This document shows positions 9,329 to 31,739 of a stretch of 64,000 nucleotides of DNA, one piece after another. The DNA comes from Woeseiaceae bacterium (lineage in GTDB: Bacteria > Pseudomonadota > Gammaproteobacteria > Steroidobacterales > Woeseiaceae): contig JAJFKT010000026.1 in the NCBI GenBank assembly GCA_021773075.1, forward strand, positions 184,356 through 248,355. The letters run 5' to 3'. A program made the translations under genes and the position numbers. Within the stretch, counting starts at the first letter, position 1; every line of letters begins with the position of its first letter. The notes beneath the pieces are model-generated. The model searched no databases and was not told the origin of the DNA. It saw nothing but the letters and a program-made list of their open reading frames with translations.

Positions 9329-9362
9329 TTGACGAATTACATAAATGGGGTATACTACCCCA
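9329..9362 (+). promoter_or_regulatory. sigma70-type promoter with embedded palindrome TGGGGTA-N3-TACCCCA (copy 1)
   Basis: -35 TTGACG (9329-9334), 16-nt spacer, -10 TATACT (9351-9356). The palindrome TGGGGTATACTACCCCA (9346-9362) spans the -10. The architecture is the same as at 12509 and 14582. Confidence 0.55.
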
Positions 9363-9389
9363 AATATAGTCAATAACAGTAAGAAGACC

Positions 9390-10826
9390 ATGAATTTCCG
9401 AGTTGCCAGGCCGATAAACCAAACTGAGAACGCCCAGGTCGGGCGCACTGCGTTATTGCTCGGCTCTTTCAAACCGCCTCACGGAGGTCATTTACAGATT
9501 GTTTCCAAGCTGTTTGAGTCCGGCGATGTCGAAGAAGTGGTCATCGTTATTTCAGCCGGTTCCAAACCGTTGCCAGGTTCAACGCACGCCATCGACTCTA
9601 CGGCGTCAGAATTGATGTGGCGGGCGATGCTAGGGAACGAGCGGCGTGTGAGGATTGAAAAGGCGGCCGGTACGGCCGCCGAGCATGCCTGCCAAACCAT
9701 GCAACAGGCACCGGTTGGCACACGCATCCTGGTGTGCCTCAGCGATGATCATTCCGAGGCCGTTGATAGTGCCGTACAAAGCTTGAATTTGAATTCCGGA
9801 ACAGCCAAAGCCGTATCCGCAGAGGTAGTACGCATGCCAGCGAATAATGATAGCTACGACACTCAGGAACAACGCAGATTCCTGGCCCGGGGCGAGCAGG
9901 GACGCAAACAGTATGTCTCTATGCAGACCGGCGGATTATCACGAATGGTACGCGAGCGTATGTGGCGAATTTGTCAATCAGAATTACGCGATATCCACTC
10001 AATAACCGCCAATCGACTGCAAGTCCTTACGCCGGAAATTATGGCGGCTATGGATGCCGAGTTCGCGCAGGCAACCAGCACCAGCCAGTGCCTGGAATTC
10101 GATGCGTGTACCGCTGACGGGAATTCTGTGCGAGTGAAATACACGGGTGATGAGAACGAAGACCTGCATTTTGAAAAACGGTCGCAGCCGTATCCGCGCG
10201 ATCGTCTCGCGTACGCCCACCGCTGTCTGCGTTTGCTGGAGTGCCACCACGGTAATGCGCAATGGTTTCCGCGCGTCCATTACTTCGAGAAAAAGCACGG
10301 AATACTTGCCGAGACTAACGCAGTCGCTGACGGCCAAACCCTGATGTCACAGTTTGTTGCCGGAAAATTTGACGACGAGATAGCAGTAAATCTGGGCAAG
10401 GTCGTTGCTGAATTGCATGCGACACCAATTGCTGAAAAGCCGATTCGTGGCTCCTTGAAACAAGAAAGAAGCTGGTGGGAGCGACGTCGAAGGTATTGGT
10501 GTGAGCGATTGGATATTCAAACGAATAAACGCGTAACTGACGGCGATACAAATCGTAGTGGGCGATGCCTGGTGCATCTCAACCTTGCCGCTGAGAATAT
10601 AATTGTCGGCAACGGCCAGGTTGCGCTGCGCGGATTTGAGTGTGCATCCAGCGTCGGCGATCCGGCACTCGATGTCTTGACGATTATTTCTAACTATGTA
10701 ACCAGCGGTGCGGCAACCGGTCAGCGACAGGTTGCGCAACAGGCTGCCGATTGTTTCGTCGACAGTTACGAGCGGCACGCTCTCAAGGGTTCTGAGGTCG
10801 TCCGGCGCGCCAGGGAGATGCTGTAA
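9390..10826 (+). CDS. two-domain protein: N-terminal cytidylyltransferase-like nucleotidyltransferase, C-terminal APH/choline-kinase-like domain with degenerate catalytic residues
   Basis: N-terminus GSFKPPHGGHLQIV is an (H/T)xGH nucleotidyltransferase motif. The C-terminus CLVHLNLAAENIIV...LRGFECASSVGDPALDV aligns to the HxDxxxxN and DFE motifs of the APH kinase fold, with both Asp replaced. The ATG at 9345 lies inside the predicted promoter, so ATG 9390 is preferred. Confidence 0.65.
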   Translation: MNFRVARPINQTENAQVGRTALLLGSFKPPHGGHLQIVSKLFESGDVEEVVIVISAGSKPLPGSTHAIDSTASELMWRAMLGNERRVRIEKAAGTAAEHACQTMQQAPVGTRILVCLSDDHSEAVDSAVQSLNLNSGTAKAVSAEVVRMPANNDSYDTQEQRRFLARGEQGRKQYVSMQTGGLSRMVRERMWRICQSELRDIHSITANRLQVLTPEIMAAMDAEFAQATSTSQCLEFDACTADGNSVRVKYTGDENEDLHFEKRSQPYPRDRLAYAHRCLRLLECHHGNAQWFPRVHYFEKKHGILAETNAVADGQTLMSQFVAGKFDDEIAVNLGKVVAELHATPIAEKPIRGSLKQERSWWERRRRYWCERLDIQTNKRVTDGDTNRSGRCLVHLNLAAENIIVGNGQVALRGFECASSVGDPALDVLTIISNYVTSGAATGQRQVAQQAADCFVDSYERHALKGSEVVRRAREML

Positions 10827-10835
10827 TCGGGTGAA

Positions 10836-12410
10836 TTACTGCCTGCTCGATATCGAGAAGTATCTACTCGGATGTCGATCGACGACGCTATCTTCGAAGC
10901 CGAGAACAGTCGGCTTCACCATGTGCTTGCTGACATAAAAATACAACGGCACGATTGGGTAGTCGCTGAGCAACATCGCTTCAGCATCATGTGCATGTCT
11001 CGCGGCCGATTCTGGATCGACTTGCCGGGCAGCCAGGTTGAGTTCCTTATCGTATTCAGCATTTTGATATTGCGGTAGGTTTTGGGGGCTGTCAGTGCGA
11101 AAAACATCCAGAAATGTGCTCGCGGCATTGTAATCGCCAGCCCACGCAAAGCGCATAATATCCCAATCCACGCGCCGATCACGCGACTGGAGAAAGTACT
11201 TCCATTCTCTTTTTTCGAGCTCTGTTTCAACACCAAGAACCTGGTTCCACATGCCAGTTACCGCCAGTGCCACTTGCTCATGAATGCCGTCGGTATCGTA
11301 TAAATAGGTGATTCTCAAAGCGTGTTCCGCTGAATAGCCAGCACGCGAATAGGCGTCCCGTGCGAGCTTTTCGCGGGCACCTTTTTCGAGGTTCATCCAG
11401 TCAAATGATGCAGCCTCATAGCCGTCCACGCCAGGCGGTACAATCCCGAACGCGGGGCTTTCTCCTCGTCCAATCAGACTAGCTAGTTGCTCTCGGTCCA
11501 CCGCCATCGTCAGTGCCTGGCGAAGGAGGTCGTTGTCAAACGGTGCTTCATGCAGGTCGAATGCGAGGTAATAAAGAGCGAGTGTCGGCGCGATGCGGGT
11601 TTCGGCCCCGTAGTCAGCGATAGCGGCCTTGACCATCTTCCCCGGAATTGTCATCGTGATATCCAAATCGCCCGCGCGATACATATTAAATTCAGCCATT
11701 TCATCGGCTATCGGCAAGTAGATCACTTCGTCGATGCGAACCGAATCGGCATCCCAGTAGCGCGAATTCTTCCTCAGGCGAAGCGCGCCACCCAACTGCT
11801 GATCGAAAAAAATGAACGCACCGTTGCTCACATGCGCCTTTCCTGACGCGTGTCGCGGGAACGCGATCGGCAGCGAAAGTACCGACAAAAAGTGACCCGC
11901 CGGCTTTGATAAGCGAATCTCAAGTTCACTTGCGGAGTGTGCAATAACGCCCAGTTCCGTTGCTGGCATTTCCCCATCGTTCACTGCCCGAAAATTTTGA
12001 ATAGGCTCGAGCAGACTGGCGTATGTTGACAACGTCTCGGGTACCGCATTACGTCGAAATGCCCGAACAAAGTCATCTGCGGTTACCGAATCACCATTGG
12101 ACCAGCGTGCATCCGCGCGCACTGCGAACGTGTATACGAGCCCATCCGCACTGATCTCCCAGGATTCGGCAACGCCAGGCAGCAATGAACCGTCAGCAGC
12201 CTCTGCCAAGAGCCCTTCATACATGTCGATCAATACATTGAAGGTATGGAGGTTCTCAGCAATACCCGGATCAAGCGTGCCTGGCTCGGCACTGTTTCCA
12301 CGACGAACACTCTGCCGTTTTTCGTCATCATCTCGGCCGCTTCCCGACCTGTCGCAGGAGACAGTCAGCACGATGAAGAAAGCGAGAACAAAAGTCAGGG
12401 TAAGACGCAT
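10836..12410 (-). CDS. ABC transporter substrate-binding protein, family 5 (peptide/oligopeptide/nickel type), lipoprotein
   Basis: Lipobox LTVSC. RGNSAEPGTLDPGIAENLHTFNVLIDMYEGLL and the overall length of about 520 aa are typical of SBP_bac_5. No permease or ATPase genes are adjacent. Confidence 0.85.
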   Translation of the reverse strand: MRLTLTFVLAFFIVLTVSCDRSGSGRDDDEKRQSVRRGNSAEPGTLDPGIAENLHTFNVLIDMYEGLLAEAADGSLLPGVAESWEISADGLVYTFAVRADARWSNGDSVTADDFVRAFRRNAVPETLSTYASLLEPIQNFRAVNDGEMPATELGVIAHSASELEIRLSKPAGHFLSVLSLPIAFPRHASGKAHVSNGAFIFFDQQLGGALRLRKNSRYWDADSVRIDEVIYLPIADEMAEFNMYRAGDLDITMTIPGKMVKAAIADYGAETRIAPTLALYYLAFDLHEAPFDNDLLRQALTMAVDREQLASLIGRGESPAFGIVPPGVDGYEAASFDWMNLEKGAREKLARDAYSRAGYSAEHALRITYLYDTDGIHEQVALAVTGMWNQVLGVETELEKREWKYFLQSRDRRVDWDIMRFAWAGDYNAASTFLDVFRTDSPQNLPQYQNAEYDKELNLAARQVDPESAARHAHDAEAMLLSDYPIVPLYFYVSKHMVKPTVLGFEDSVVDRHPSRYFSISSRQ

Positions 12411-12638: not shown

Positions 12639-14084
12639 ATGAATAATCTGTGGAATTATCTGCTGGGCCTCGTTATCTGCTTTTCGATTTCAGCTTGTGG
12701 CGGAGGGGCCCAGACCACAACACAAGCACCGAGCGCTGCAAATCCTGTGCCTGGAATGGCATCCGGACCGATTTCAACCTTCGGCAGCATCGTCGTCAAC
12801 GGCGTTCGTTACAACACGGATTCTGCATCGTTTGAGGTCAATGACGCCCCGGGGACGCAGGCCGATCTAAGTGTTGGGCAGATCGTCACCGTGAAAGGGA
12901 TGATCGATGCCAATGGCACTACGGGCACCGCAAACGCAGTGACATTTGACGATACTGTCAAAGGTCCTGTTCAGAGCATCGATCTGGTCGGGCGACAATT
13001 CGTTGTTCTTGGACAGAATGTTCTGGTCGTGGCGGGAACGTCCTTTGATGACCGTTTCAGCCCCGCAACTATGGATGGCCTTAGCGTTGGTCAGATTGTG
13101 GAAGTGAGTGGCCAGTTTGATGCGAATAACGACATCGTCGCTACCCGTATTGAGCCCAAACCAGCAGGCACTCAATTCGAGGTCCACGGTACGGTCAGCA
13201 ATCTTGACAATACCAATATGCGTTTCAACATCAATAACCTCGTCGTTGACTACAGCGCGGCCCTGCTTGACAATTTTCCGGCCGGGCAAATTAGCAACGG
13301 CGATTTCGTTGAAGCCAAGGGCACCATGCTCGGCGCCGCCGGTGAACTACTGGCGACCAAAGTGGAGCTTGATGCGTTATTGCCGGGAGCCACGGGTGGT
13401 GACCGCATTGAGATCGAAGGTTTTATCACTCGCTTCGAGTCTGCACAGGATTTTGATGTCGCGGGGCAGAAGGTTACAAGCACCTCAAGCACGCGTTTTC
13501 TTGGTGGCAGCGCGTCCGACCTGGGACTGAATATCAAGGTTGAGGCCGAGGGCGATCTCGACAGCGATGGTGTTCTCGTTGCGACGAAAATAGATATTCG
13601 TCGAGCGAAGGCCGTGCGCGCAACCGCAAATGTGGATTCTGTCAACGCAGCTGACAAATCGCTGGTGGTCCTCGGTATTACCGTCAAAGTGGACGCACAA
13701 ACGCGCCTTGAAGACAAAACCGATGCGGACGTAACGCCACTAACCCTTTCCGATATCAGCGCCGGCGATTACATCGAAGTTCGCGGTAGCGAATTTCCTG
13801 CTGGCAGCGGGACCATTCTTGCGGCGCGCTTCGAACGCGAGGATCCGGACAACCGCGCGATCCTGCAGGGCTTTGTCGAAGCCATTAGTGAGCCATCATT
13901 CAATATTCTCGGCGTCAGCATCGAAACGAGCGGTGCTACAGTATTCCGCGAGGCTGACGGTACCGTCATTTCGTCGACCAATTTTTTCGGTCAACTAACA
14001 GAGAACTCGCTGGTCAAGGCGAAAGGAACGGAAGTCGCAAACTCAACAATATCTGCGACAGAAGTTGAATTCGAAATCGAATAA
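12639..14084 (+). CDS. DUF5666-like repeat lipoprotein (paralog A)
   Basis: The start at ATG 12639 has an AAGGA RBS and gives the lipoprotein signal MNNLWNYLLGLVICFSISAC-GGG. Repeated modules of the form G.IxxFGSIVVNGVRY...SVGQIVTVKG / VVLGQNVLV...GQIVEVSG. About 65% identical by eye to 15440..16903 over aligned blocks. Confidence 0.75.
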   Translation: MNNLWNYLLGLVICFSISACGGGAQTTTQAPSAANPVPGMASGPISTFGSIVVNGVRYNTDSASFEVNDAPGTQADLSVGQIVTVKGMIDANGTTGTANAVTFDDTVKGPVQSIDLVGRQFVVLGQNVLVVAGTSFDDRFSPATMDGLSVGQIVEVSGQFDANNDIVATRIEPKPAGTQFEVHGTVSNLDNTNMRFNINNLVVDYSAALLDNFPAGQISNGDFVEAKGTMLGAAGELLATKVELDALLPGATGGDRIEIEGFITRFESAQDFDVAGQKVTSTSSTRFLGGSASDLGLNIKVEAEGDLDSDGVLVATKIDIRRAKAVRATANVDSVNAADKSLVVLGITVKVDAQTRLEDKTDADVTPLTLSDISAGDYIEVRGSEFPAGSGTILAARFEREDPDNRAILQGFVEAISEPSFNILGVSIETSGATVFREADGTVISSTNFFGQLTENSLVKAKGTEVANSTISATEVEFEIE

Positions 14085-14103
14085 ATCAAAAGGACGAACA
14101 GAT

Positions 14104-14454
14104 ATGGAAACCAGGGAAATGATCGGAGAACGCAACAGCTCAGTTGCTGCCGAATTTGCAGAAATTGGCACCTCCTGCCGGCAGTTTCGTACACGGTTTG
14201 ATGTTGATATTCGAGAATTCATTATTCTTGCGACACTTTATGACTCCTGTTCGGCGAGTTCGCAGGCACTGTCCGAAGTGCTTGAGCTAAGCGCTTCGAC
14301 GGTGGACTACTGCTTATGCAAACTGGCAGAAAACGGACTGGCCATGGAATTGGACCGCAATACCTGCGAATTCTGCGCAACAACAGACGGCAGGAAACTG
14401 GTCCGCACAGCCTACCGGCAGTACGAGTCGGCAGCCATTGACATGGCTGCGTGA
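14104..14454 (+). CDS. small MarR-like winged-helix protein (paralog A)
   Basis: FDVDIREFIILATLYDSCSASSQALSEVLELSASTVDYCLCKLAENGLAMELDRNTCEFCATTDGRKLV matches the MarR wHTH pattern (xxxFxhL..L....s...La..l.ls.stv...l..L...Gl......D.R....T..G). At 116 aa it is shorter than typical MarR proteins. The ATG at 14104 is preferred over 14065, which overlaps the upstream gene. Confidence 0.6.
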   Translation: METREMIGERNSSVAAEFAEIGTSCRQFRTRFDVDIREFIILATLYDSCSASSQALSEVLELSASTVDYCLCKLAENGLAMELDRNTCEFCATTDGRKLVRTAYRQYESAAIDMAA

Positions 14455-14581
14455 AAGGATCCGACGTGGAAACAGCGTATGACAACACTATCCGTAACAA
14501 GAACTCCAGATTTGGTCAACAATGGCCGGAGTACACAGCATGACGCAAGAGGCTGCCACGACCGAAACACATCCAAATTCC

Positions 14582-14615
14582 TTGACAATGGATGCAATTG
14601 GGGTAAAATACCCCA
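14582..14615 (+). promoter_or_regulatory. sigma70-type promoter with embedded palindrome TGGGGTA-N3-TACCCCA (copy 3)
   Basis: -35 TTGACA (14582-14587), 16-nt spacer, -10 TAAAAT (14604-14609), palindrome TGGGGTAAAATACCCCA (14599-14615). The ATG of the next gene starts at 14616. Confidence 0.55.
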
Positions 14616-15443
14616 ATGACAGAACAGAGTATCAAGTTACTGCTGCAGAAAGCGTGCCAGGCGTTGCTACGTCCGATCGCCTCGGTGCTGCTAAAAACCG
14701 GCATGACGTGGAAAGAGTTTTCCGACATTTCGAAGACCGTATTCGTGTCAGTCGCTACCGACGAGTTCGGTATCCGCGGTCGGCCAACGAATGTCTCAAA
14801 AACATCAATCTTAACCGGTATTTCGCGAAAAGAGGTGAAACGCCAGCGCGACCTGATTCAAGAAGGTGGCGCGCTGATGCCAAACAAAACCACCGACGCT
14901 TCGCGTTTGCTAACGGCATGGTATCAGGATAGCGACTATGTCGATGAGCAGGGTGAACCGATGACTTTGACGCGACACGGTCCTGCCCCGAGTTTTCAGT
15001 CTTTGTTCGACACTTACGGCGGTGATACGCCCGAACAGACACTGATCAAGGAACTGAGCGGCGTCGGATCCATTGAGATTGACGACGATGGACAACTGCA
15101 TGCAAAGCGCCGCTATCACATGCCGGTGCAAACGGATATCGGCCACATTCAGGTCTTCTGCTCAATCCTGATCGACCATGCAAATACGCTGAGCAAAAAC
15201 CTTTACGGTGACGAGACCGAACGGTTGATCGAGGGCATGGCGATCAACCATTCGATCGATCCGGATGCGCTCGATGCGTTCCGAGAGTTTGCCGACCAGC
15301 GCGGCCAGTTGTTGCTTGAAGAAATTGACGAATGGTTGAGCGGTCATTGCATCGATGTGAACTCGACGGAAAAAACTCCTATAAGGCTAGGACTTGGTGT
15401 CTATGGCTTTGAAGACAAGAATTCAAAAGGAAGAACGAAATGA
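14616..15443 (+). CDS. hypothetical cytoplasmic protein (possible HTH-containing N-terminus)
   Basis: 275 aa with no signal peptide. The N-terminus MTEQSIKLLLQKACQALLRPIASVLLKTGMTWKEFSDISKTVFVSVATDEF looks helical and HTH-like. Its stop overlaps the start of the next gene (ATGA at 15440-15443). Confidence 0.55.
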   Translation: MTEQSIKLLLQKACQALLRPIASVLLKTGMTWKEFSDISKTVFVSVATDEFGIRGRPTNVSKTSILTGISRKEVKRQRDLIQEGGALMPNKTTDASRLLTAWYQDSDYVDEQGEPMTLTRHGPAPSFQSLFDTYGGDTPEQTLIKELSGVGSIEIDDDGQLHAKRRYHMPVQTDIGHIQVFCSILIDHANTLSKNLYGDETERLIEGMAINHSIDPDALDAFREFADQRGQLLLEEIDEWLSGHCIDVNSTEKTPIRLGLGVYGFEDKNSKGRTK

Positions 15444-16903
15444 AAAATATACTTGGCACGATAACCTTACTCTTGGCCTTTTCTTTGCTCCACGGTTGCG
15501 GCGGTGGTGGTGGGGGCAGCGGAACTCCGCCAGTGGTCCCGCCGCCGGTTGACGCAATCATCAGAACCGGAATTGCGGTTGGCCCAATCGACACGTTCGG
15601 AAGCGTTGTCGTAAATGGCGTTCGCTACGACACTGCCACAGCGACCTTCACGAGCGATGGCGCTGCCGCAAGCGAAAGTGATCTGAATGTCGGTGACGTT
15701 GTGACGGTCATGGGCACGATTGAAGATGACGGGCTAACTGGAACGGCAGAAACGGTAGCGACCGACGACACGGTAAAGGGCCCAATTGAGAGTATCGATC
15801 TGGCACTGAGTCAGATCGTGGTGCTTGGGCAAACCGTGCTGATTCGTCCGGAAACGTCTTTCGATGACACGCTTAGTCCTGCCTCGATTGATGGTCTGAG
15901 TGTCAGCATGATTGTCGAGGTGAGTGGACAAATCGACGCCAATGGCAATGTTCTCGCAACACGCATAGAGCCGAAGCCGGCCGGTACGCAATTCGAAGTT
16001 CACGGCACTGTTAGCGGCCACAATGCGACAACATTCGTTTTCTCCCTCAACAATCTGGTTGTTGACTACAGCGGTGCGACGCTGAACGATTTTCCGGGTA
16101 ATGCGATCGCAGACGGAGACTTCGTGGAAGCGAAAGGGGTGTCCCTGGGTGCTGCTGGCGAATTGATAGCAACCATCGTTGACCTCGAAGACAATGGCCT
16201 TAACGGTGCTGCTGACACGCATGTCGAAATCGAAGGCTTCATCACACGTTTCGTTTCGGCGACGGATTTTGATGTTACTGGCAATCCCGTTACGACGAAC
16301 GGCTCGACGACATTCGTCGGCGGCGTTGCGGCAGATCTGGGGCTGAACATCAAGGTGGAAGTCGAGGGTGCTCTCGATGCCGGTGGCCTGTTGGTCGCTG
16401 AAAAAGTGGATATTCGCCGTAGCAAGGCGGTGCGCGGTGTTGCGGTAGCCGATTCTGTCGATGCCGCAGCAGGATCGGTGGTTATGCTCGGAATCACGTT
16501 CACCACGGACGAATTGACTCGATTTGAGGACAAGAGCAGCGCCGATATTCGACCGTTGACGATTGGCGATATCAGCGCTGGTGATTACCTGGAAATTCGC
16601 GGCGCCGAGTTCCCGGCTGGAAGTGGCCAGATACTCGCAACCATTTTTGAACGTGAGGATTTGGATACACGGACGGAGCTGCAAGGATTCGTCGAAACAG
16701 TTGCGGATCCATCATTGACCATCCTCGGTGTCACGATTGATACCAATGGGTCGACGATATTCAGGGATATTGATGACAACGTGATTAGCGCCACAGACTT
16801 TTTTAGCCAGGTCGCGGCGAATTCTCTAGTAAAAGCAAGCGGATCAGAAACAGGAGATACATCCATACTCGCACAGGAAGTGGAATTCGAGCTGGAATTG
16901 TAG
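15440..16903 (+). CDS. DUF5666-like repeat lipoprotein (paralog B)
   Basis: Lipoprotein signal MKNILGTITLLLAFSLLHGC-GGGGGGSG. Same repeat organisation as 12639..14084, for example RIEPKPAGTQFEVHGTVS, NNLVVDYSGA and DGDFVEAKG, which are shared almost verbatim. Confidence 0.75.
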   Translation: MKNILGTITLLLAFSLLHGCGGGGGGSGTPPVVPPPVDAIIRTGIAVGPIDTFGSVVVNGVRYDTATATFTSDGAAASESDLNVGDVVTVMGTIEDDGLTGTAETVATDDTVKGPIESIDLALSQIVVLGQTVLIRPETSFDDTLSPASIDGLSVSMIVEVSGQIDANGNVLATRIEPKPAGTQFEVHGTVSGHNATTFVFSLNNLVVDYSGATLNDFPGNAIADGDFVEAKGVSLGAAGELIATIVDLEDNGLNGAADTHVEIEGFITRFVSATDFDVTGNPVTTNGSTTFVGGVAADLGLNIKVEVEGALDAGGLLVAEKVDIRRSKAVRGVAVADSVDAAAGSVVMLGITFTTDELTRFEDKSSADIRPLTIGDISAGDYLEIRGAEFPAGSGQILATIFEREDLDTRTELQGFVETVADPSLTILGVTIDTNGSTIFRDIDDNVISATDFFSQVAANSLVKASGSETGDTSILAQEVEFELEL

Positions 16904-17028
16904 ATCAGCTCAGGGACGAGCAAAAAGGAAGATTGGGCGCGGCCGGCGAAGAGCGACGCCAGGGAAGTGCCCGCCCAAATTTTCCATTGATAACAAAAAC
17001 AAGAACACGAATAGCAAGGAGCGAACGA

Positions 17029-18354
17029 ATGATGGGACGATTGATTAAGGTACTCATGATTGGCGTCTGCAGTAGTACAACGCTCGCAGCGGGCGGCGCG
17101 GATGCAGACCTGTTCGACAGTGCACAAATTGCCGCCGAAGAGGGTCGTCTTGCTGACATGCAGGAACTCTACGAGCGAATACTCGTCGACGACCCGAACA
17201 ATATTCGAGCGTTAAACGGTAAGGCCGCCGCTCAGGCATGGCAACGCGACTTCGACGGGGCACAGCTTACGTATTCCCGATCAATCGCTGTCGAGCCGCA
17301 AAATACGGATACATTAGTGGGCCTCGGTTACGCCTATGCGTGGGCCGGTGCGTACACCCAGGCCCACACTCAATTCCACCGCGCGCTGGCGATCGATCCA
17401 GGAAGTAGTGGCGCACGCAAGGGTATTGGATACAGTTATCACTGGGCAGGCGAACACGAGTTGGCACTCGGATCTTTCGAAACGGCGCAAAGTATCGCAC
17501 CGGACGATGCAGAAATTGCCGAGGCCATTGGCAGGGTGAAGTTGTCCTTAGGTCACTCACGTGATGCGGTCGCTGACTTTGACCGGGCACTGCAAATCGA
17601 CCCGACTCGACACAGTGCGAGCTTGGCGAGGCGCAGCGCACACCTGTCGGCACCAGCGCTCGAATTGACGACGCGCTTTGGTTCGACAAGCAATGCAGGC
17701 TCGGGTCTGCGGGCCGTCGAAGTCGCGCATTGGTCAGCGCCAACAACGCGATTCGCAGTGCGCTATGACAACAGCCTTGGCCTCGACAATTCGTCGATTA
17801 GTGATCGTGGTGAAGATGCGCGCGGCTACTTCGTCTCGGTGCAGCAGTATATTAACGACAGATGGATCGTTGGCGCCGAGGTTGGCCGACGCCAGCTTGA
17901 TGCTGGCGACGAGAGCATGCTCACTCTGCAAGGTTCCTACAACAGCGCCGTCGGCGTGTTTCGTCTCGGAACACAGATCGGCCGGCACGAAGCCGGCCAT
18001 ACTGACAAACTAGTGTTCGGTGGATTCAACTTTGCACTGGCGAATAATTGGCGTATCGAACCGACTGTCTATCTATCACAGACTGGAGTCGCTCGCGATA
18101 ACGAGTGGCGCAGTGTTGTCAACGCCGAGTATCAATCGCAATCGCTTTGGTCGGCGGGCGCGTTGTTAGGTGTTGGCCAGATCGACTCTGCTGATTCAAT
18201 TTTCGACGGTGATACCTCGATCGCCGGTTTGTGGGGCAGCTACCTGATCGCAGACCGATTCTCTCTGCGCCTTTCGGTGCGGCGCGAAAATACGCCTACT
18301 GCGGACTTTACCGTCGCCGAATTCGGATTCACGTACCGCCTGCCGGGCAACTAG
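17029..18354 (+). CDS. TPR-repeat protein with C-terminal outer-membrane beta-barrel (YaiO-like, tentative)
   Basis: ATG 17029 gives the signal peptide MMGRLIKVLMIGVCSSTTLAAGGADA. TPR-like repeats (YERILVDDPNNIRALNGKAAAQAWQRDFDGAQLTYSRSIAVEPQN...) are followed by about 230 aa of alternating beta-strand pattern. Confidence 0.65.
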   Translation: MMGRLIKVLMIGVCSSTTLAAGGADADLFDSAQIAAEEGRLADMQELYERILVDDPNNIRALNGKAAAQAWQRDFDGAQLTYSRSIAVEPQNTDTLVGLGYAYAWAGAYTQAHTQFHRALAIDPGSSGARKGIGYSYHWAGEHELALGSFETAQSIAPDDAEIAEAIGRVKLSLGHSRDAVADFDRALQIDPTRHSASLARRSAHLSAPALELTTRFGSTSNAGSGLRAVEVAHWSAPTTRFAVRYDNSLGLDNSSISDRGEDARGYFVSVQQYINDRWIVGAEVGRRQLDAGDESMLTLQGSYNSAVGVFRLGTQIGRHEAGHTDKLVFGGFNFALANNWRIEPTVYLSQTGVARDNEWRSVVNAEYQSQSLWSAGALLGVGQIDSADSIFDGDTSIAGLWGSYLIADRFSLRLSVRRENTPTADFTVAEFGFTYRLPGN

Positions 18355-18364
18355 GGGGTATACG

Positions 18365-20137
18365 ATGGAGCTGACATCTTCAAGTACGGTAAGTGTCGAG
18401 CAAGCAGCATCGCAAACGATCAATTTTCGCACTGTCGCAAACCGGTCACCAGCGATGTTCATATTCCTGTTCGCTATGTGGTTTGCCGCCCTGGCATGGT
18501 TCGGGCCACGGCTGCTGCAATCGATGGCTGCGGCACAGGGCCCGGTATCCGCATTCGCGCAGGCCTATTTCATAGTATTCGTGTGCATTGCCTGGCTCTA
18601 CGGATTGTATAACGTGTCAGTGGTGTCGTTTGCGACGTACACGAGAATCCGAAATCGGCTGACCGCAACCGATACGACCCCGCCCGAGAAATTAAATACG
18701 CCGATTGCCGTGCTGTACACGACGTGCAATGACTTCGTCGAAGCCGGCGCGATGTCGTGCGCCAAAATGGAATACGGAAACTTCAAACTCTACATACTTG
18801 ACGACAGCAGCGATGTCGGTTACCAGCGCAAGGTTGATCGTTTCGCAAGTCAATATGAGCATGTCGATGTCGTCCGCCGAAAAGATCGTTCCGGGTTCAA
18901 GGCGGGAAATCTGAATCACGCACTGGAAAGTGTCGTAACGGAGCCGTACTTCGTTATCGCAGATTCCGACGAGATCCTGCCGAGAGATTTCCTGTCCAAA
19001 TTGGTGCCGCGGATTGCCGCCGATCCAAGTTGTGGGTTTATCCAGGCCAATCACCAATGCATCAAGCAGGGGACGAAACTGCAGCGTGACATGTGCCGTG
19101 GGATCGATATTCACTGGGAATGGTATCAGCCTTTGAGGAACCGCTTCGGCTTCGTCATGTTCCTCGGTCACGGCGCGATACTGCGAAAACGTTGCTGGGA
19201 TGAAGCCGGCGGGTTTCCTGAGTTGGTCAGTGAAGATCTGGCGTACGCGATCGCGATTCGCGAACGCGGCTATTACGGGACCTTTGCCTCCGACGTTGTT
19301 TGCATGGAGGAGTTTCCGTCATCCGTTAGGGCTTTCCGCATTAGACACGTCAAGTGGACTCGAGGCACTTGCGAGTTCCTGCATCGGTTTACATCACGTT
19401 TGCTGCGCTCCAGGAACATCTCCTGGTCCGAGAAGTTGGATATTCTTTTTCCAACCGCGAATCTCCCGCTGACGTTGTTTTTTTTCGTCTTCATGATGAT
19501 GACGTCAATAGTGCTGCCACTGACGATTGGCGAGCGGGCGACTATGACGATAGAGATCGGATTGAGCTCGCTACAAATTCCAATCGTGCGCATGCCCGCT
19601 GAGATGAACGTCCTTTACACTTGGGACTTCTACTTAATGACGTTGGTGTCACTGGTGTCGCCGCTGCTGTGCTTTATGCTCGCCATGTGGCGCTCACCAC
19701 TAAAATTATTGCGATTTCTCGCGCATTCTACGTCGTTATATGCCGCGTTGGCACCATTGTCGACTATCTGCGTCATCGGTTATTTGAAAACGCGGGCCGC
19801 CCGATTTCTCGTTACCGGCGACAGTGCAGCAGGTGCCCAGGGCGAGAGTAACTACTGGGCGGAAACTCATCCCGACTCCGAGATTACGCAGCGCTTTGAG
19901 TGGGTTGCTGCCTGGGTATTTCTGATTGGCGCACTTGTCAGTTTTCAAATTGCCTTATTTGGTCTGGCGATTGGATACGCGTTACTGGCAATCATGCACA
20001 GCGCTGACTGGGGTCGGCCCGGACTGCAGACAATGACCTGGGTTCCTTTTACTTTTATTGCCAGTGGAATTGCTCTTGGTGGCATGAGCTTGTTCGGGAT
20101 GCAGCCGGTTTTTTTCGGCTACGGGTTTCATTTCTGA
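18365..20137 (+). CDS. membrane-embedded processive family-2 glycosyltransferase (polysaccharide synthase; OpgH / cellulose-synthase-like)
   Basis: N-terminal TM pair, then GT2 motifs: VLYTTCNDF, YILDDSSD, FKAGNLNHAL, IADSDEIL, VSEDLAYAIAIRERGY and a QxxRW-like RHVKWTRGTCEF. Multiple C-terminal TM helices follow. Confidence 0.8.
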   Translation: MELTSSSTVSVEQAASQTINFRTVANRSPAMFIFLFAMWFAALAWFGPRLLQSMAAAQGPVSAFAQAYFIVFVCIAWLYGLYNVSVVSFATYTRIRNRLTATDTTPPEKLNTPIAVLYTTCNDFVEAGAMSCAKMEYGNFKLYILDDSSDVGYQRKVDRFASQYEHVDVVRRKDRSGFKAGNLNHALESVVTEPYFVIADSDEILPRDFLSKLVPRIAADPSCGFIQANHQCIKQGTKLQRDMCRGIDIHWEWYQPLRNRFGFVMFLGHGAILRKRCWDEAGGFPELVSEDLAYAIAIRERGYYGTFASDVVCMEEFPSSVRAFRIRHVKWTRGTCEFLHRFTSRLLRSRNISWSEKLDILFPTANLPLTLFFFVFMMMTSIVLPLTIGERATMTIEIGLSSLQIPIVRMPAEMNVLYTWDFYLMTLVSLVSPLLCFMLAMWRSPLKLLRFLAHSTSLYAALAPLSTICVIGYLKTRAARFLVTGDSAAGAQGESNYWAETHPDSEITQRFEWVAAWVFLIGALVSFQIALFGLAIGYALLAIMHSADWGRPGLQTMTWVPFTFIASGIALGGMSLFGMQPVFFGYGFHF

Positions 20138-20162
20138 TCGGCAAGCGACGAGGAGTTCGAGA

Positions 20163-20489
20163 GTGTTTTCGCAGACCTCGAAAGATAGGGATAACAAAGA
20201 GCGGCTCGACGAAGTTGATAAGTATGTCGACACCGGTACGTCATGCCCGGAGCTGTGCGCGAAGTACGATGTTGACATTCGGGAGTTCGTGATTCTCGCG
20301 TGTATGAGTGAAACCGGTGAGTCGTGCGTCAATTACCTCAGCGCAGCAATTGGACTTAGCCCGACGACCGTAAGTGCGTGCATCGACAGACTGTTTGAGA
20401 ATGGCTTGATTCGATCGTCGGATGAGAATCCACCGCGTTACCTGCCAACAACCGACGGCATCGCAATGCTGCGTAAAGCAGGTGAATAA
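20163..20489 (+). CDS. small MarR-like winged-helix protein (paralog B)
   Basis: YDVDIREFVILACMSETGESCVNYLSAAIGLSPTTVSACIDRLFENGLIRSSDENPPRYLPTTDGIAMLRKA is colinear with 14104..14454. GTG start, 108 aa. Confidence 0.6.
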   Translation: MFSQTSKDRDNKERLDEVDKYVDTGTSCPELCAKYDVDIREFVILACMSETGESCVNYLSAAIGLSPTTVSACIDRLFENGLIRSSDENPPRYLPTTDGIAMLRKAGE

Positions 20490-23486: not shown

Positions 23487-26153
23487 TCATAAATACTGGG
23501 TTTCGGTAGCATCCAGAACAACACGAATTCGTTGCGCCAGCTGTGCGGAGGAATAGGGCTTCGGTAATAACGGAATCTTTTGCGCGCTTTCAATTTCTCT
23601 ATCGCTTTCTGGCTCCATCCCGGTAGTAAGCAATACCTTCATGTCCGGCCAGGTATTCATCGCAATATGCGCAAGCTCTCGACCATTGGTCTCACCGGGC
23701 ATGACAATGTCGGCAAACAGAAGGTCTATCTGCTGGTTCTGTTGCAGAATATCCATCGCCGCGGCTGCATCTTCGGCATAAAGAGTTTCATATCCGAGAC
23801 GATTCAGAGTACGGCAAGCGAACTGGCGTACCCTCTTATTGTCTTCCACAACGAGTATGATTTCCTCGCCCGTTGGGAGATCCTCATCTACGACTTCAAT
23901 TTCAAAATCTTCCGTTGTAGCCACACTTGGAAACGATAATTTGATGCAGGTGCCTTTGTCCGGGCCACTATCGATGTGAAGAATACCGCCGCACTGTTGA
24001 ACAAAATCACTGACCATCGTTAATCCAAGTCCGGTACCTGTCTCAACGGTCTTGGTTGTAAAGAATGGCTCAATGGCCCGGCGTCTGGTTTCGTCGTCCA
24101 TTCCGACGCCATCGTCTGTCACAGTCAGTACAATAAAATCGCCGGAACCTAGATCACCATCCCCTTCTGTTTTATTCACCATCTCCTGCAGGGTCGAGAT
24201 TATTATGTTCCCCCCATCTGGCATGGCGTCACGAGCGTTGGTGACCATATTGAGTACCGCGCTTTCCAGACGATTCTTATCAACAAGGATATTGTCGATG
24301 TCATTATCCAGTTCCATTCTTATACTGATCTCCGGAACCGATCGCTGTATGAGTCTCTCCATAGCTACAAGAATGTTGTTGATGTTCATAGAATGAACAT
24401 CAAGTTCCTGACGGCGAGAATAGGCCAGTAATCGCTTGATTAGGTCGGCCCCGTCCTGGGCTGCGGACAGCGCATCATCAAGCAGATCGTTATGATCCTG
24501 GTCTTCATAAACCACATCCAGCTTAAGAAACCGCAGGTTGCCTCGAATGACCGTCAAAAGATTATTGAAATCGTGAGAAATGCCGTCTGTCATGCGGCCA
24601 ATTGCCTCAAGTTTCATGGCCTGGGTCAGCATACTCTCCTTCTTGCGTGCATCCGTAATGTCTTCATTGATCGAGATGTAGCGGGCGATTTGACCTTCCT
24701 GATCTCGGACGGGGCAGATCGTGGAAGACAGCCAGAACGGGTCGCCGTTCTTTGTCCTGTTTTGAAATACCCCTCGCCAAATACCGCCTTTTGAAACAGT
24801 TCCCCAAAGTTCCTTGTAGTTTTCCTTCGAGGTCTGGCCGGAGCTCAAAAAACGGGGGTTCTCACCGATTACCTCATCCTCACGATAACCGGTGATATCG
24901 TAAAAACGGGGGTTAACGTATTCAATGTTTCCTGCAGCATTGGTAATCATTATCGATACCGGGCTTTGTTCAACGGCACTGGAGAGCTGTTGCAGCTCGG
25001 CGTTCATTTTTTCCTCACCGGACAGGTCACGCATGATGCCGGTAAATGAAACGTTCTGCCCTTCTTGCACCTTACTGACAGTGAGGTAAATCGGAACGAA
25101 ATCACCATCCTTACGCCGCGCCTGTACTCTTCGGCCGGTGCCAATGATCGTGGCAATATCTGTTCGCAAATATTCTCTTATATAGTCATCATGCGTTTCA
25201 GCGTCTGGCAAAGACATAAGCATTGATACGTTTTGGCCCAACACCTGATCGGCCGCATAAGCAAAAATTGACTCTGCGGCCAGATTGAATGTCTGGATGA
25301 TTCCCGCTTCATCTATTGTGACAATACCTTCACCCGCGTTATTCAAGATTGATTCCAGGCGTAATTCGCGATCCAGTATTTCTTCTTGTTTGCCAATCAA
25401 ACTCCGGTGCATTACCTCAAGGTCTTCCGTCAGACTCTTGAGTTCGGAAATGGTAGTGTTGACGCGGAATTCGATGGAATGATCGCCAGCGGCAATGCTT
25501 GTAGCCAAACCTCTCAGAGATGAAACAGGCCGGGTAAGAAACCGGCCAAAGAAAATCGCCAGCAATATGCTGAATACGATATAGCAACTCGCTATGAATG
25601 AACCATATTGGTACGCAGTATTAATTTGATCCTGCACTGCTAATTCGTCATAGCCTAATCTCAAAGTACCCAGCGATCTGCCATCCACATCACTGAACAA
25701 TTGCACCGCGATAAAATATATCTGGTCTGCATGCTGACCGAAATCAAAGTCTTCCCTAAAAACTATCGGTTCTTTAGTGCCGTTCGTTTCGGTGCCAATC
25801 GTCGTATCATTGTTGTTAATAAGCTCCGCGAAGATCACGTCACCGCTAAATTGTGTCTCGTAAAAAAATGAGGCCTGTTTCTGTGCGTCCTGATTCTCGG
25901 CCGCAGGCTTAAGTATTTCGGAATACAGCAGAGTATCGTTGCGTACCTGATCGATAAACTGGGATTCAAAACTGCGTTCGACGATAAGCAGGATACCGAA
26001 GAACAGCAGGGGAGTAAGCGGGATATGGATAATGAATACCCCAAGCATCATGCGGCCGGTAATGCTATGCCAGAACCGTTTTAGTTGTTCGAATCTGTCC
26101 ACAATATACCCAGCGATTTTAGTCCGGATTGACGCCCGAGTTGTTCGGACCAC
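23487..26153 (-). CDS. hybrid sensor histidine kinase / response regulator (periplasmic sensor, HAMP, 2 x PAS, HisKA, HATPase, REC)
   Basis: H-box region GRMTDGISHDFNNLLTVIRGN. N-box and G-boxes LNMVTNARDAMPDGG...DDGVGMD...GTGLGLTMV. C-terminal receiver ILVVEDNKRVRQF...DLLFADIVMPGETNG...LPKPY. The ORF start overlaps the upstream gene by 73 nt; the ATG at 26051 (MMLGVFIIH..., first TM) is an alternative start. Confidence 0.9.
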   Translation of the reverse strand: MVRTTRASIRTKIAGYIVDRFEQLKRFWHSITGRMMLGVFIIHIPLTPLLFFGILLIVERSFESQFIDQVRNDTLLYSEILKPAAENQDAQKQASFFYETQFSGDVIFAELINNNDTTIGTETNGTKEPIVFREDFDFGQHADQIYFIAVQLFSDVDGRSLGTLRLGYDELAVQDQINTAYQYGSFIASCYIVFSILLAIFFGRFLTRPVSSLRGLATSIAAGDHSIEFRVNTTISELKSLTEDLEVMHRSLIGKQEEILDRELRLESILNNAGEGIVTIDEAGIIQTFNLAAESIFAYAADQVLGQNVSMLMSLPDAETHDDYIREYLRTDIATIIGTGRRVQARRKDGDFVPIYLTVSKVQEGQNVSFTGIMRDLSGEEKMNAELQQLSSAVEQSPVSIMITNAAGNIEYVNPRFYDITGYREDEVIGENPRFLSSGQTSKENYKELWGTVSKGGIWRGVFQNRTKNGDPFWLSSTICPVRDQEGQIARYISINEDITDARKKESMLTQAMKLEAIGRMTDGISHDFNNLLTVIRGNLRFLKLDVVYEDQDHNDLLDDALSAAQDGADLIKRLLAYSRRQELDVHSMNINNILVAMERLIQRSVPEISIRMELDNDIDNILVDKNRLESAVLNMVTNARDAMPDGGNIIISTLQEMVNKTEGDGDLGSGDFIVLTVTDDGVGMDDETRRRAIEPFFTTKTVETGTGLGLTMVSDFVQQCGGILHIDSGPDKGTCIKLSFPSVATTEDFEIEVVDEDLPTGEEIILVVEDNKRVRQFACRTLNRLGYETLYAEDAAAAMDILQQNQQIDLLFADIVMPGETNGRELAHIAMNTWPDMKVLLTTGMEPESDREIESAQKIPLLPKPYSSAQLAQRIRVVLDATETQYL

Positions 26154-26563
26154 ATATAGGAAACAGATCCCGGGTTATCGAGCAATGCCTTAACCAGCGC
26201 ATCAATGTTTTCATATTCAGGTGGCCGCTGGTCCCCAAGCCGGAAAACACGTGAAAGTAATTGACGTTCATATTCACGTTTGGACATGAAAACAATCTGT
26301 TGCAGAAATACGTCTGTTGCGAATCGATCACTCGTATTCAGTAACGGCCTAAGTCGTACCTGAGCTTTAGTCATTGGTACACCCAGGAATAACTTTCGTA
26401 CCTCTGCATGGGCAAGTGGTTCTATCGTTAAATTGTTGCTACAGACCAGCAGCAAGCTGCGTTGCGTCGTCTCTGCGCTGCTGTTTGTGCAAACCAAACA
26501 CAGACACATCAACAAGACTTTGAGTTTCGCCGCTTTCCTCTGCATCAGAACATTGCATCCCAC
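26081..26563 (-). CDS. hypothetical exported protein, periplasmic-binding-protein-like (short)
   Basis: Signal peptide KLKVLLMCLCLVCTNSSAE. LLLVCSNNLTIEPLAHAEVRKLFLGVPMTKAQVRLRPLLN resembles the start of PstS-like type-2 binding folds. Co-oriented with the downstream kinase gene and abutting it. Confidence 0.5.
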   Translation of the reverse strand: MGCNVLMQRKAAKLKVLLMCLCLVCTNSSAETTQRSLLLVCSNNLTIEPLAHAEVRKLFLGVPMTKAQVRLRPLLNTSDRFATDVFLQQIVFMSKREYERQLLSRVFRLGDQRPPEYENIDALVKALLDNPGSVSYMWSEQLGRQSGLKSLGILWTDSNN

Positions 26564-27612
26564 TGCAGCATGATTTGGCCAAAATTGTCTCCTTGCGTAC
26601 GATTTCCGGAAATTTCGAGTTTAAAGGCATGTCGACCAAACGCATTCAAACGAACCCCACCAAGAAGCCTGTCAGTGATGTGACGCGGAAATAGCGCTAG
26701 ATAGGCGTCATCCTCTTCGCCAAAGGTCCATTCACCGCGGCCGAAAATTGTCCATCGATCGTCCAGGTTGTATTCCGTTTGAAGATAGCCGCTAAAAAAA
26801 TTATCTGTTAGCGTCCCCGCCAACTGTTGCAGGCGATTATCGACGTAGAATGTTGAACCTACCAATCGCCACGGGTGGGATTCCCAGTTCCCATACGCTC
26901 CTGCGTTAATTTGGCGAATTTTTTCAATTTCCTGGTTGGTGGCAGGGATTTCAGTGTAATTGACAAACAGGCCGTATCGCGTCGGACTGTATATTACCGG
27001 TTCAAGATAAAGGTTCAGCGCGAGGCTGAGGTCCTGCGAACCCGATGCCGGCTCCAAAACATCCAGCGGTTCCAGTTTGTCGGCCATTTCAGGTCCAGTG
27101 GCCACTGCCAGCGCATAACCCAACCCCTTCTTGTCGTATTCCTTGATGCCTTCAACGAGTAGTCCCGTTAAATGCATAGGCAGGATTCCGTCGTCGTCTT
27201 CGAAGTCAACAATTGATGGCCGACTGATACTGGTTTCCAAATAGGAGCCATGATGAAACTGAGTATTCCAGTAACCTACAGGGTTATGAAACCGTCCGAA
27301 CCAGACCTTGCCATCGCCAATCGTCCAACCCAATTGAATTCGCTCAATATCCTGTTCATCTTTACTGAGTAGCAATTCACCGAGAAAAAGTAGTTTTCCG
27401 TACTCGGCCGTGGCAAATACACCTACACCATAGTTGTAATCATCATCATCGAGTAACGAGTCAGTTGCCAGATTGGTACGATAAACCGTGCCTATGTGAG
27501 GGAATAGCAGGTAATCGAAAGTAGATTCACTGTGACTGGGCGGCGAATAAATCGCTATTGCAATAACAATCAGGACATAGATCAATCCGCCTCTATTATC
27601 GTTACAGTTCAC
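26545..27612 (-). CDS. putative outer-membrane beta-barrel protein
   Basis: N-terminal signal or anchor LIYVLIVIAIAIYSPPSHSE. Alternating hydrophobic pattern, Gly/aromatic-rich, C-terminal ...IMLQWDAMF (terminal Phe). No named family recognised. Confidence 0.5.
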   Translation of the reverse strand: MNCNDNRGGLIYVLIVIAIAIYSPPSHSESTFDYLLFPHIGTVYRTNLATDSLLDDDDYNYGVGVFATAEYGKLLFLGELLLSKDEQDIERIQLGWTIGDGKVWFGRFHNPVGYWNTQFHHGSYLETSISRPSIVDFEDDDGILPMHLTGLLVEGIKEYDKKGLGYALAVATGPEMADKLEPLDVLEPASGSQDLSLALNLYLEPVIYSPTRYGLFVNYTEIPATNQEIEKIRQINAGAYGNWESHPWRLVGSTFYVDNRLQQLAGTLTDNFFSGYLQTEYNLDDRWTIFGRGEWTFGEEDDAYLALFPRHITDRLLGGVRLNAFGRHAFKLEISGNRTQGDNFGQIMLQWDAMF

Positions 27613-27790
27613 CTAGCTATGCTCCCTCGATTAAGCGTCGTTATGTGCTGACCTGCCTCATCCGTGGATGTGACGGGCTAGCGAATGTGGACTAATTATA
27701 CTATGTTGATCGGGAGACAGCGTTTCAGTAGATTTACCTAGTCTTGGCCCAGGGTTTCGTTCGACCCGATCACACCTTAAGAATTAAAGA

Positions 27791-28519: not shown

Positions 28520-28593
28520 TCGTATTGGATGGGTCCGGTGCCCAGCGCTGTGCGGCTTGAGTGCAGCGCAGTCGTACTAATATCTGCACGAAT

Positions 28594-28670
28594 TTACATG
28601 TAGTTACAATAAATAATTAATCCTTACGAAATCTTGTTTCTCGGGTTACATAGACTCAGTAAGATTACAT
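28594..28670 (+). promoter_or_regulatory. array of TTACAT-like direct repeats upstream of the trihaem cytochrome genes
   Basis: TTACAT 28594, TTACAA 28604, TTACGA 28624, TTACAT 28646, TTACAT 28665 (spacings 10, 20, 22, 19 nt). They lie in the AT-rich 215-bp gap between the OmpR-type regulator gene and the first cytochrome gene. Confidence 0.45.
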
Positions 28671-28734
28671 CTGGGAATGTATTCCAGAAACGAGACATCC
28701 GGCGAGAAACTCAGAACGTAGTCACAGGTGATAA

Positions 28735-29097: not shown

Positions 29098-29100
29098 CCC

Positions 29101-29700: not shown

Positions 29701-29734
29701 TGGTCAATTACATGTCTTTTTCTAGTCTCTTATC

Positions 29735-30310: not shown

Positions 30311-30316
30311 TCCGAA

Positions 30317-30940: not shown

Positions 30941-30993
30941 ATAGCTCGAGATTTTGCTAGCGCACGATCCATTGTAGAGGGAGCACAACGATC

Positions 30994-31734: not shown

Positions 31735-31739
31735 TTGAT

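Follow-up and report, generated by a model that had tools for sequence, protein, structure and literature searches.

To our knowledge, all characterised synthase-dependent polysaccharide systems (cellulose, poly-N-acetylglucosamine (PNAG), alginate, Pel and Nfr) possess extra periplasmic subunits and a cyclic di-GMP (c-di-GMP) switch. In the cellulose (Bcs) system, the inner-membrane synthase BcsA is combined with BcsC, an outer-membrane pore made of tetratricopeptide repeats (TPRs) and a beta-barrel, and in the Pga system the gene of a TPR and barrel porin likewise stands beside that of a polytopic family 2 glycosyltransferase (GT2). The Nfr system of E. coli comprises the GT2 NfrB with a MshEN domain, the outer-membrane TPR-barrel protein NfrA and the periplasmic YbcH encoded in the operon (PMC8669469); NfrB, NfrA and YbcH make up the N4 phage receptor glycan system (PMC8669469, PMC8669472). 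Here we analysed a 64,000-nucleotide stretch of a Woeseiaceae bacterium genome (the window), in which seven plus-strand open reading frames (ORFs) occupy positions 12639-20489. Two adjacent ones encode a TPR/beta-barrel outer-membrane protein and a polytopic GT2 synthase, and this pair of genes, referred to below as the cassette, is the main subject of the analysis.

Judged from sequences and predicted structures, the seven-gene stretch is probably a composite of independent units with a two-gene cassette for synthase-dependent polysaccharide secretion as its core. The seven genes are two independent conserved pairs placed side by side, the TPR-barrel–GT2 pair and a pair encoding a DUF6502 protein and a DUF5666 lipoprotein, accompanied by lineage-specific small genes. 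By analogy, the TPR-barrel–GT2 pair would work like Bcs, Pga and especially Nfr, yet it appears to be a member of none of them: it has no extra subunits or c-di-GMP receptor, its acceptor motif is a variant one, and its pore is smaller and belongs to a family without a model. It resembles Nfr in particular, but without MshEN in the GT2 and without a third conserved gene such as YbcH; no Nfr family was among the NCBIfam matches, a result that concerns family models, the NfrA and NfrB sequences not having been compared directly. Set against Pga, the pair lacks the PgaB deacetylase and PgaD and stays under the PgaC and PgaA cut-offs; its porin gene comes first, followed by the synthase gene. No description of a TPR-barrel and GT2 pair was found in the searchable literature.

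Distribution and conservation of the TPR-barrel–GT2 pair

Relatives of the pair were collected from 185,579 species-representative genomes in a search with a GT2 profile, which gave 170 relatives, and 80 loci (designated by L numbers, as are the further contigs below) were kept. The ORFs of these loci were called mechanically, and the conservation of the pair was followed by phmmer and by all-against-all ORF clustering over the 80 loci. The genome scan consisted of two exact peptide patterns, so that distant relatives are under-sampled. The GT2 proteins of the kept relatives were 44-80% identical to that of the window. Among the 80 loci, the carriers were Woeseiaceae and other Gammaproteobacteria, Sphingomonadales, Hyphomonadaceae and Caulobacteraceae, many Bacteroidota (Saprospiraceae, Lewinellaceae, Chitinophagaceae, Flavobacteriaceae), Gemmatimonadota, Calditrichota and one Nitrospiria metagenome-assembled genome (MAG). 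Counted as phyla or classes, these groups number at least six, and they include lineages common in marine sediment and MAGs with names pointing to activated sludge. Altererythrobacter lutimaris JGD-16 (L018) and Flavobacteriaceae bacterium SZ-1-7 (L039) are cultured representatives.

In 76 of the 80 genome loci, the gene immediately preceding the GT2 gene, in the same orientation, was a TPR-barrel gene. In L024, a more divergent TPR gene occupied the same position, which made it the 77th case, and the remaining three loci were cut at the GT2 gene; the adjacency was thus observed in 77/77 informative loci. No third conserved partner was found, the next-largest real gene clusters being present in at most 12 of the 80 loci. 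The Pfam scan of 137 immediate neighbours returned Por_Secre_tail (12), Peptidase_S8 (7) and DUF5666 (6), and otherwise nothing recurrent. Deacetylase, glycoside hydrolase, PilZ and GGDEF families were absent from the 25 commonest families of these neighbours, and c-di-GMP control domains (PilZ, MshEN, a PgaCD/Alg44/PelD-like receptor) were found neither there nor in the seven proteins encoded at 12639-20489, although a cryptic binding site may exist. Pfam and NCBIfam likewise detected no deacetylase, c-di-GMP receptor domain (PilZ/MshEN/GGDEF), BcsB-like protein or glycoside hydrolase in the seven-gene stretch. The original prediction, made from the DNA letters and their translations, had noted the lack of these usual partners and had seen in a TPR-barrel gene next to a GT2 gene the logic of synthase-dependent exopolysaccharide systems. 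The domain scans agree with the former statement, and the invariable adjacency, together with folds that match BcsC/PgaA and BcsA/hyaluronan synthase (see below), agrees with the latter.

The neighbours of the pair vary by lineage, with DUF6502 and DUF5666 genes in 10 gammaproteobacterial loci. In one gammaproteobacterial subclade (L007:7418-8632, L008:7355-8569, L009:7386-8603), the DUF5666 lipoprotein gene is separated from the TPR-barrel gene by one for a ~404-aa Glyco_tran_28_C protein (GT-B, MurG-like), possibly a second transferase for the cassette. In Hyphomonadaceae and Sphingomonadales (L013:5580-8557, L016, L017, L018, L040), the pair is flanked by a subtilase gene (Peptidase_S8, 490-700 aa) and by genes for an extracytoplasmic function (ECF) sigma factor and a zf-HC2 anti-sigma factor. 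L013 also encodes a 642-aa DUF5666 protein on the other strand, 5 kb upstream of the pair, and its GT2 gene is directly followed by that of a Crp-like regulator. Genes for PMT_2 (ArnT-like GT-C) and LPG_synthase_TM proteins precede the pair in the Ectothiorhodospiraceae-labelled L024 (L024:5686-8231); these additional envelope-glycan genes were met at no other locus.

Predicted structures of the pore and the synthase

The TPR-barrel gene (17029..18354, plus strand) encodes a protein of 441 aa with Pfam TPR matches in its N-terminal half. Its start is the ATG at 17029, which lies behind an AAGGAG site, and not the TTG at 16933. The AlphaFold model (predicted local distance difference test, pLDDT, 89.5) begins with a signal region of 22 disordered residues, which is followed by 11 helices (~5.5 TPRs) and then by 14 strands whose extracellular loops are short. 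This is in line with the barrel foreseen in the original prediction. The strands show the polar/apolar alternation typical of a membrane barrel. In Foldseek searches against the PDB, the whole model matched E. coli BcsC best (E 2e-13), followed by the PgaA barrel 4y25 (E 1e-8) and chitoporin. Numbered from 17032, residues R227, D246, G313, R360, E419 and G432 were invariant in 68 orthologues from all phyla, and in the TPR arm W104, F115, K130-G131 and F149 were at least 97% conserved in the same set. The residues facing the barrel lumen include 11 positive and 13 negative ones, a roughly balanced set from which the charge of the polymer is not inferable.

The barrel did not fall into any family with a Pfam or NCBIfam model. 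The barrel domain alone (236 aa) had no Pfam or NCBIfam match at E up to 10, and ten divergent relatives likewise matched no barrel model; membership of YaiO, Slam/DUF560, BcsC_C or the PgaA barrel was rejected on these grounds. The whole porin reached 31.5 bits against a cut-off of 858 with PRK11447 (BcsC), 32 against 366.65 with TIGR03939 and 35.5 against 1043 with PRK10049 (PgaA). A barrel-only profile retrieved 201 clusters among 1.84 billion representatives, most of them of ~440 aa. Variant architectures were seen among the barrel-domain relatives (P0352, P0409, P0419, P0446, P0373): some carry N-terminal Big_1/CarboxypepD_reg domains before the TPRs (~690-830 aa), one has 1443 aa of TPRs and barrel, and others are barrel-only in length (~270-290 aa).

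The short TPR arm, the 14 strands and the position of the gene right after a lipoprotein gene recall Slam, whose architecture is an N-terminal TPR domain and a 14-strand DUF560 barrel, encoded beside the lipoprotein cargo. The TPR-barrel protein would then be a translocon that brings the DUF5666 lipoproteins to the surface, and the GT2 would be a passenger or a glycosylator of the cargo. The TPR_Slam Pfam model does match the L024 orthologue weakly (E 3e-4, under the cut-off), but no barrel model, that of Slam/DUF560 included, matched the barrel itself. Moreover, the invariant neighbour across six phyla or classes is the GT2 gene and not a lipoprotein gene, such a barrel gene is missing beside the majority of DUF5666 lipoprotein genes, and the best structural matches are the polysaccharide pores BcsC and PgaA. 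We regard a Slam-like function as very improbable.

The GT2 gene (18365..20137, plus strand) encodes a polytopic protein of 590 aa (Pfam Glyco_tranf_2_3, E 1.5e-19), which stayed under the cut-off of every curated NCBIfam family. It scored 67.9 bits against a cut-off of 699.1 with TIGR03030 (CelA), 39 against 992 with PRK11498, 44.4 against 422.3 with TIGR03937 (PgaC) and 21 against 310 with HpnI; the best of the MdoH models, NF003962, gave 54.6 bits against 328, and the other MdoH models gave less. With scores so far under the cut-offs, orthology to OpgH, CelA, PgaC and HpnI was rejected. The GT2 family profile matched only BcsA in the PDB, in the GT domain (E ~5e-15). The AlphaFold model (pLDDT 81.4) had whole-chain BcsA as the top Foldseek match (E 3.5e-16, TM-score ~0.55), and hyaluronan synthases, plant CesA, cyclic beta-1,2-glucan synthase (Cgs) and chitin synthase (Chs1) came next. 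The TM-scores were ~0.5 over ~550-790 aligned columns, and all the matched proteins are channel-forming processive synthases. The GT2 is accordingly modelled, rather than seen, as a BcsA/hyaluronan synthase-type fold with a predicted transmembrane channel of its own.

In the HMMER alignment of BcsA to the GT2, the DAD motif corresponded to D200xD202, FFCGS to FLGHG, TED to S289-E-D291 and QRGRW to R327-HV-K-W331. Further motifs were D146/D147 and a BcsA-like gating-loop sequence, F481-LVT-G-D486. The motif residues, including those of the gating-loop-like stretch, were invariant or nearly so in 32 homologues.

BcsA and BcsC were the best match in both sequence and fold for the two proteins. 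The pair has in common with Bcs an inner-membrane synthase combined with a TPR/beta-barrel outer-membrane pore, and the GT2 shares with BcsA the DxD and ED motifs, the xxxxW motif and the FxVTx gating-loop-like sequence. It differs in having neither PilZ nor BcsB, in scores far under the CelA and BcsA/BcsC cut-offs and in RHVKW where BcsA has QxxRW. Compared with the ~5.5 TPRs and 14 strands of the TPR-barrel protein, BcsC is far richer in TPRs, and its barrel has 16 strands. The GT2 is further set apart by two helices at the N-terminus and an extra one at the C-terminus, the latter ending in the invariant FGxGFHF.

The GT2 might instead make periplasmic glucans in an OpgH-like manner or glycosylate a membrane lipid as GT21/HpnI-like enzymes do, and the TPR-barrel protein would then have some other envelope function. 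One MdoH/OpgH NCBIfam model aligned with residues 27-454, transmembrane segments included (E 7e-15), HpnI matched weakly, Pfam Glyco_transf_21 gave 41 bits, and the lack of a c-di-GMP domain and of a modifying enzyme would suit such a product. The MdoH and HpnI scores were nevertheless far under their cut-offs, and OpgH orthology, which the original prediction had itself named as the finding that would contradict it, was not seen. The whole-model folds match channel-forming polymer synthases, and the BcsA-like FLVTGD gating-loop sequence and the ED and xxxKW motifs are invariant. The OpgH system also has a polytopic GT2, but the pair comes without OpgG and its obligate partner is an outer-membrane pore; if the product were periplasmic or a lipid, an obligatorily linked pore gene would be difficult to account for. 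We consider this explanation unlikely.

For a polysaccharide secretion cassette, we infer processivity, export, polymer type and regulation as follows. The GT2 would polymerise a nucleotide-sugar on its cytoplasmic GT-A domain, and the chain would be threaded through its own transmembrane channel, as in BcsA and hyaluronan synthase. The short periplasmic TPR arm would catch the chain and the 14-strand barrel would release it outside, in a system working without a c-di-GMP receptor, a periplasmic adaptor or a modifying enzyme. With the inversion of anomeric configuration that GT2 enzymes bring about, a beta-linked product would be expected, and since there are no modifying enzymes, it would probably be an unmodified homopolymer. 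As there is no c-di-GMP domain, control would probably be exerted at the expression level. A small MarR-type protein encoded 25 nt after the synthase gene, in this genome and three relatives, is a candidate accessory regulator. In the window, the cassette may also be read through from the upstream DUF6502–lipoprotein unit; a promoter-like site lies before the DUF6502 gene and none before the TPR-barrel gene.

Of 78 complete GT2 orthologues, which cover all phyla, 77 end in FFG[FY]GFHF-COOH; the copy of the window reads FFGYGFHF and lies within the last 11 codons (20105-20137). AlphaFold confidence was low at this C-terminal tail. The loop 546-557 contains 2.1 Lys/Arg against 0.6 Asp/Glu family-wide and in this resembles cytoplasmic loops; together with the modelled helical hairpin 506-546, its charge favours seven transmembrane helices and a periplasmic tail. 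On this topology model, the FG[FY]GFHF peptide is probably periplasmic. The tail also fits the G-x-x-aromatic-x-aromatic pattern of outer-membrane-protein C-termini, though the protein is an inner-membrane one.

TPR domains classically bind C-terminal peptides, and the TPR arms of the Pga, Pel and alginate systems serve to hold partner proteins in the periplasm, which makes docking of the tail a testable idea. The pair would in that case be a self-sufficient two-protein trans-envelope machine for an undescribed polymer, in which the FG[FY]GFHF-COOH tail of the GT2 docks on the TPR arm/barrel and so replaces the adaptors (BcsB, PgaB, YbcH) and the c-di-GMP gate. We put this forward tentatively and with a low expectation that it is correct; in the models, the combined length of the TPR arm and the tail seems insufficient for a typical periplasm.

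A cassette of synthase and pore only would define the minimal requirements for polysaccharide passage across the Gram-negative envelope, and bacteria abundant in the environment would gain one more polymer in their matrix repertoire. The distinctive invariant motifs of the synthase are direct handles for experiments.

Independence of the DUF6502–DUF5666 gene pair

Upstream of the cassette, the DUF6502 gene (14616..15443, plus strand) encodes a cytoplasmic protein of 275 aa (Pfam E 4e-42, 144.5 bits against a cut-off of 27). It is followed by the gene of a lipoprotein of 487 aa, LipoB (15440..16903, plus strand), with six DUF5666 repeats (Pfam E 6e-55, 184 bits against a cut-off of 27), whose start overlaps the DUF6502 stop by 4 nt. 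A second lipoprotein, LipoA (12639..14084, plus strand), has 481 aa and also six DUF5666 repeats (Pfam E 7e-63, 209 bits against the same cut-off). The lipoboxes of LipoA (FSISA-C) and LipoB (LLHG-C) are both followed by Gly.

The DUF6502 protein had 889 homologues; all 120 listed were 55-69% identical, and the few named ones among those listed were labelled Woeseiaceae. A metagenome scan for DUF6502 added 80 more loci, in which the counts were limited by the length of the downstream sequence (at least 700 nt or at least 2300 nt). The DUF5666 lipoprotein gene was directly downstream of DUF6502 in 70/70 loci with at least 700 nt downstream. Where the downstream sequence extended for at least 2300 nt (35 metagenome loci), the TPR-barrel and GT2 genes came next in 3 loci and were missing from the other 32. 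On the long contigs L081 (153 kb) and L082 (232 kb), the DUF6502–DUF5666 pair stands beside the same SBP_bac_5 gene as in the window and is followed by unrelated genes, with no cassette at the locus. Conversely, ~66 of the 77 TPR-barrel–GT2 loci, among them those of five other phyla or classes, had neither DUF5666 nor DUF6502 within 10 kb. In a neighbour-joining tree of DUF6502, the cassette-bearing loci were scattered among cassette-free loci, which points to repeated loss or gain at one chromosomal site.

These counts do not sustain the view of the original prediction that the seven genes form one co-conserved module, a lack of co-conservation being the second finding that it had named as contradicting it, and they give no support to its proposal that DUF5666 lipoproteins fill the periplasmic or cell-surface role of the export system. 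A misleading association is thereby removed: the DUF5666 lipoproteins and DUF6502 are a unit of their own, the function of which is to be sought separately.

In an integrated seven-gene system, the DUF5666 lipoproteins would stand in for BcsB, PgaB or YbcH as the periplasmic or surface subunit, with DUF6502 and the small MarR-like proteins as regulators. The genes do lie on one strand with short gaps, no terminator- or promoter-like site was found in the 125-nt gap between the LipoB and TPR-barrel genes of the window, and the order DUF6502–DUF5666–TPR–GT2 was met in 10 related gammaproteobacterial genome loci and 4 metagenome loci; the alphaproteobacterial L013 has its DUF5666 protein 5 kb from the pair. 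This recurrence of the four-gene order is confined to one related lineage, however, so that shared ancestry explains it, and elsewhere other genes adjoin the pair, such as the GT28-like gene in L007-L009 or the S8 peptidase and ECF sigma/anti-sigma genes in Alphaproteobacteria. Considering also that each pair mostly occurs without the other, an integrated system seems quite improbable.

Several points nonetheless weigh against the proposed independent secretion cassette. The absence of the cassette was scored at the locus only, and the genomes could carry it elsewhere. All 10 related gammaproteobacterial genome loci with DUF6502 (L001-L012 except L003 and L010) have the cassette immediately after the DUF5666 gene, in the same orientation; given this adjacency and the lack of any site in the LipoB–TPR gap, co-expression and some functional tie are possible in this lineage. 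In the synthase, RHVKW stands in place of QxxRW, with W331 kept, Q changed to R and R to K, and with these two residues replaced (RxxKW) the handling of the acceptor may differ from that in known synthases. In the model of the pore, the TPR arm (~5.5 repeats) looks too short to span the periplasm, and the barrel, with its predicted 14 strands, is smaller than the 16-strand barrels of PgaA and BcsC; strand number and topology were derived for the predicted models from a DSSP string and from counts of charged residues rather than by inspecting coordinates.

The DUF6502 and DUF5666 genes are a separate and probably translationally coupled unit, to which LipoA would belong as an extra paralogue; some Woeseiaceae-like relatives have the cassette directly behind this unit, and the two may share a transcript there. 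A promoter-like site, TTGACA-16-TAAAAT (14582..14609, plus strand), was the best in the region in a consensus scan, matching 11/12 positions; it is a consensus match only. It ends 6 nt before the DUF6502 ATG, with no obvious Shine-Dalgarno sequence between, and the DUF6502 mRNA may be leaderless. By its position, this site is a candidate start of a DUF6502–LipoB(–TPR–GT2–wHTH_B) transcript, where wHTH_B is the small winged-helix gene after the GT2 gene.

HTH_29 matched residues 56-90 of the DUF6502 protein weakly (E 0.15), and for this reason its N-terminal helix-turn-helix (HTH) is treated as putative. LipoB, DUF6502 and a profile of 12 DUF5666 repeats had no significant match among PDB sequences; the best matches (E 0.05-0.17) were designed double-psi barrels and the uncharacterised protein 4gnx. 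In the literature, DUF5666 appeared only incidentally, in gene and protein lists, and DUF6502 was not mentioned. Our best guess is that the unit couples translationally an HTH-like cytoplasmic protein to an outer-membrane-anchored string of six small beta domains. In most related loci with upstream DNA, a lone gene for an SBP_bac_5 solute-binding protein (10836-12410, minus strand, in the window) lies directly upstream of DUF6502 in either orientation, as seen in L001, L002, L005, L006, L012, L081, L082 and many metagenome loci.

LipoA, the small winged-helix genes and the flanking region

LipoA and LipoB are 62% identical. LipoA is 68-70% identical to single-copy orthologues elsewhere, and the orthologues of LipoB in L001, L012 and others are 67-71% identical to it; each being closer to the orthologues of other genomes than to its neighbour, the two did not arise by recent tandem duplication. 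No second lipoprotein gene was present in any related locus. Outside this genome, LipoA and the gene after it, wHTH_A (14104..14454, plus strand, 116 aa), were met only on the short contig L084, where both genes are identical. LipoA is an extra paralogue outside the conserved cassette. One reading is that LipoA and wHTH_A may be the remnant of a second lipoprotein–(TPR–GT2)–wHTH unit that lost its middle.

wHTH_A and wHTH_B (20163..20489, plus strand, 108 aa) are 39% identical (E 4e-21) and contain little beyond the winged helix, whereas typical MarR proteins have ~140-160 aa and a dimerisation helix bundle. wHTH_B passed the cut-offs of both MarR (27.7 bits against 24.6) and HTH_24 (30.6 against 21.9), and wHTH_A stayed under both with 18.9 and 19.1 bits for MarR and HTH_24. 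A small winged-helix gene followed the GT2 gene only in the window, L001, L012 and L162, and none followed the lipoprotein gene in cassette-free loci. The association of the mini-MarR genes proposed originally with the cassette is limited to these four loci. The small winged-helix genes are candidate lineage-specific regulators of the cassette.

All seven products are exact full-length matches in the public protein collection, and the gene calls on an independent contig agree with those of the window. The gene map drawn originally, with seven plus-strand genes, was therefore confirmed, with a minor correction at two start codons. From LipoA to wHTH_B, the genes are separated by 19 nt, 161 nt, a 4-nt overlap, 125 nt, 10 nt and 25 nt.

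By Pfam, the genes flanking the seven have no glycan link. Upstream lie those of a phosphate-selective porin, a cytidylyltransferase-like/APH-like protein and the SBP_bac_5 protein, and downstream those of an AhpC/TSA redoxin, a gluconate 2-dehydrogenase subunit 3 and a GMC oxidoreductase. The cytidylyltransferase-like/APH-like protein (9345-10826, 493 aa) is an unusual fusion, in which a weak cytidylyltransferase-like match at the N-terminus is joined to an APH-type phosphotransferase domain at the C-terminus; its gene is not among the conserved neighbours of the cassette. Further downstream, the G+C content is 0.47-0.49 over ~8 kb (24001-32000), compared with 0.51-0.57 in most of the window, and the drop starts inside a minus-strand hybrid sensor kinase gene (23487-26153).

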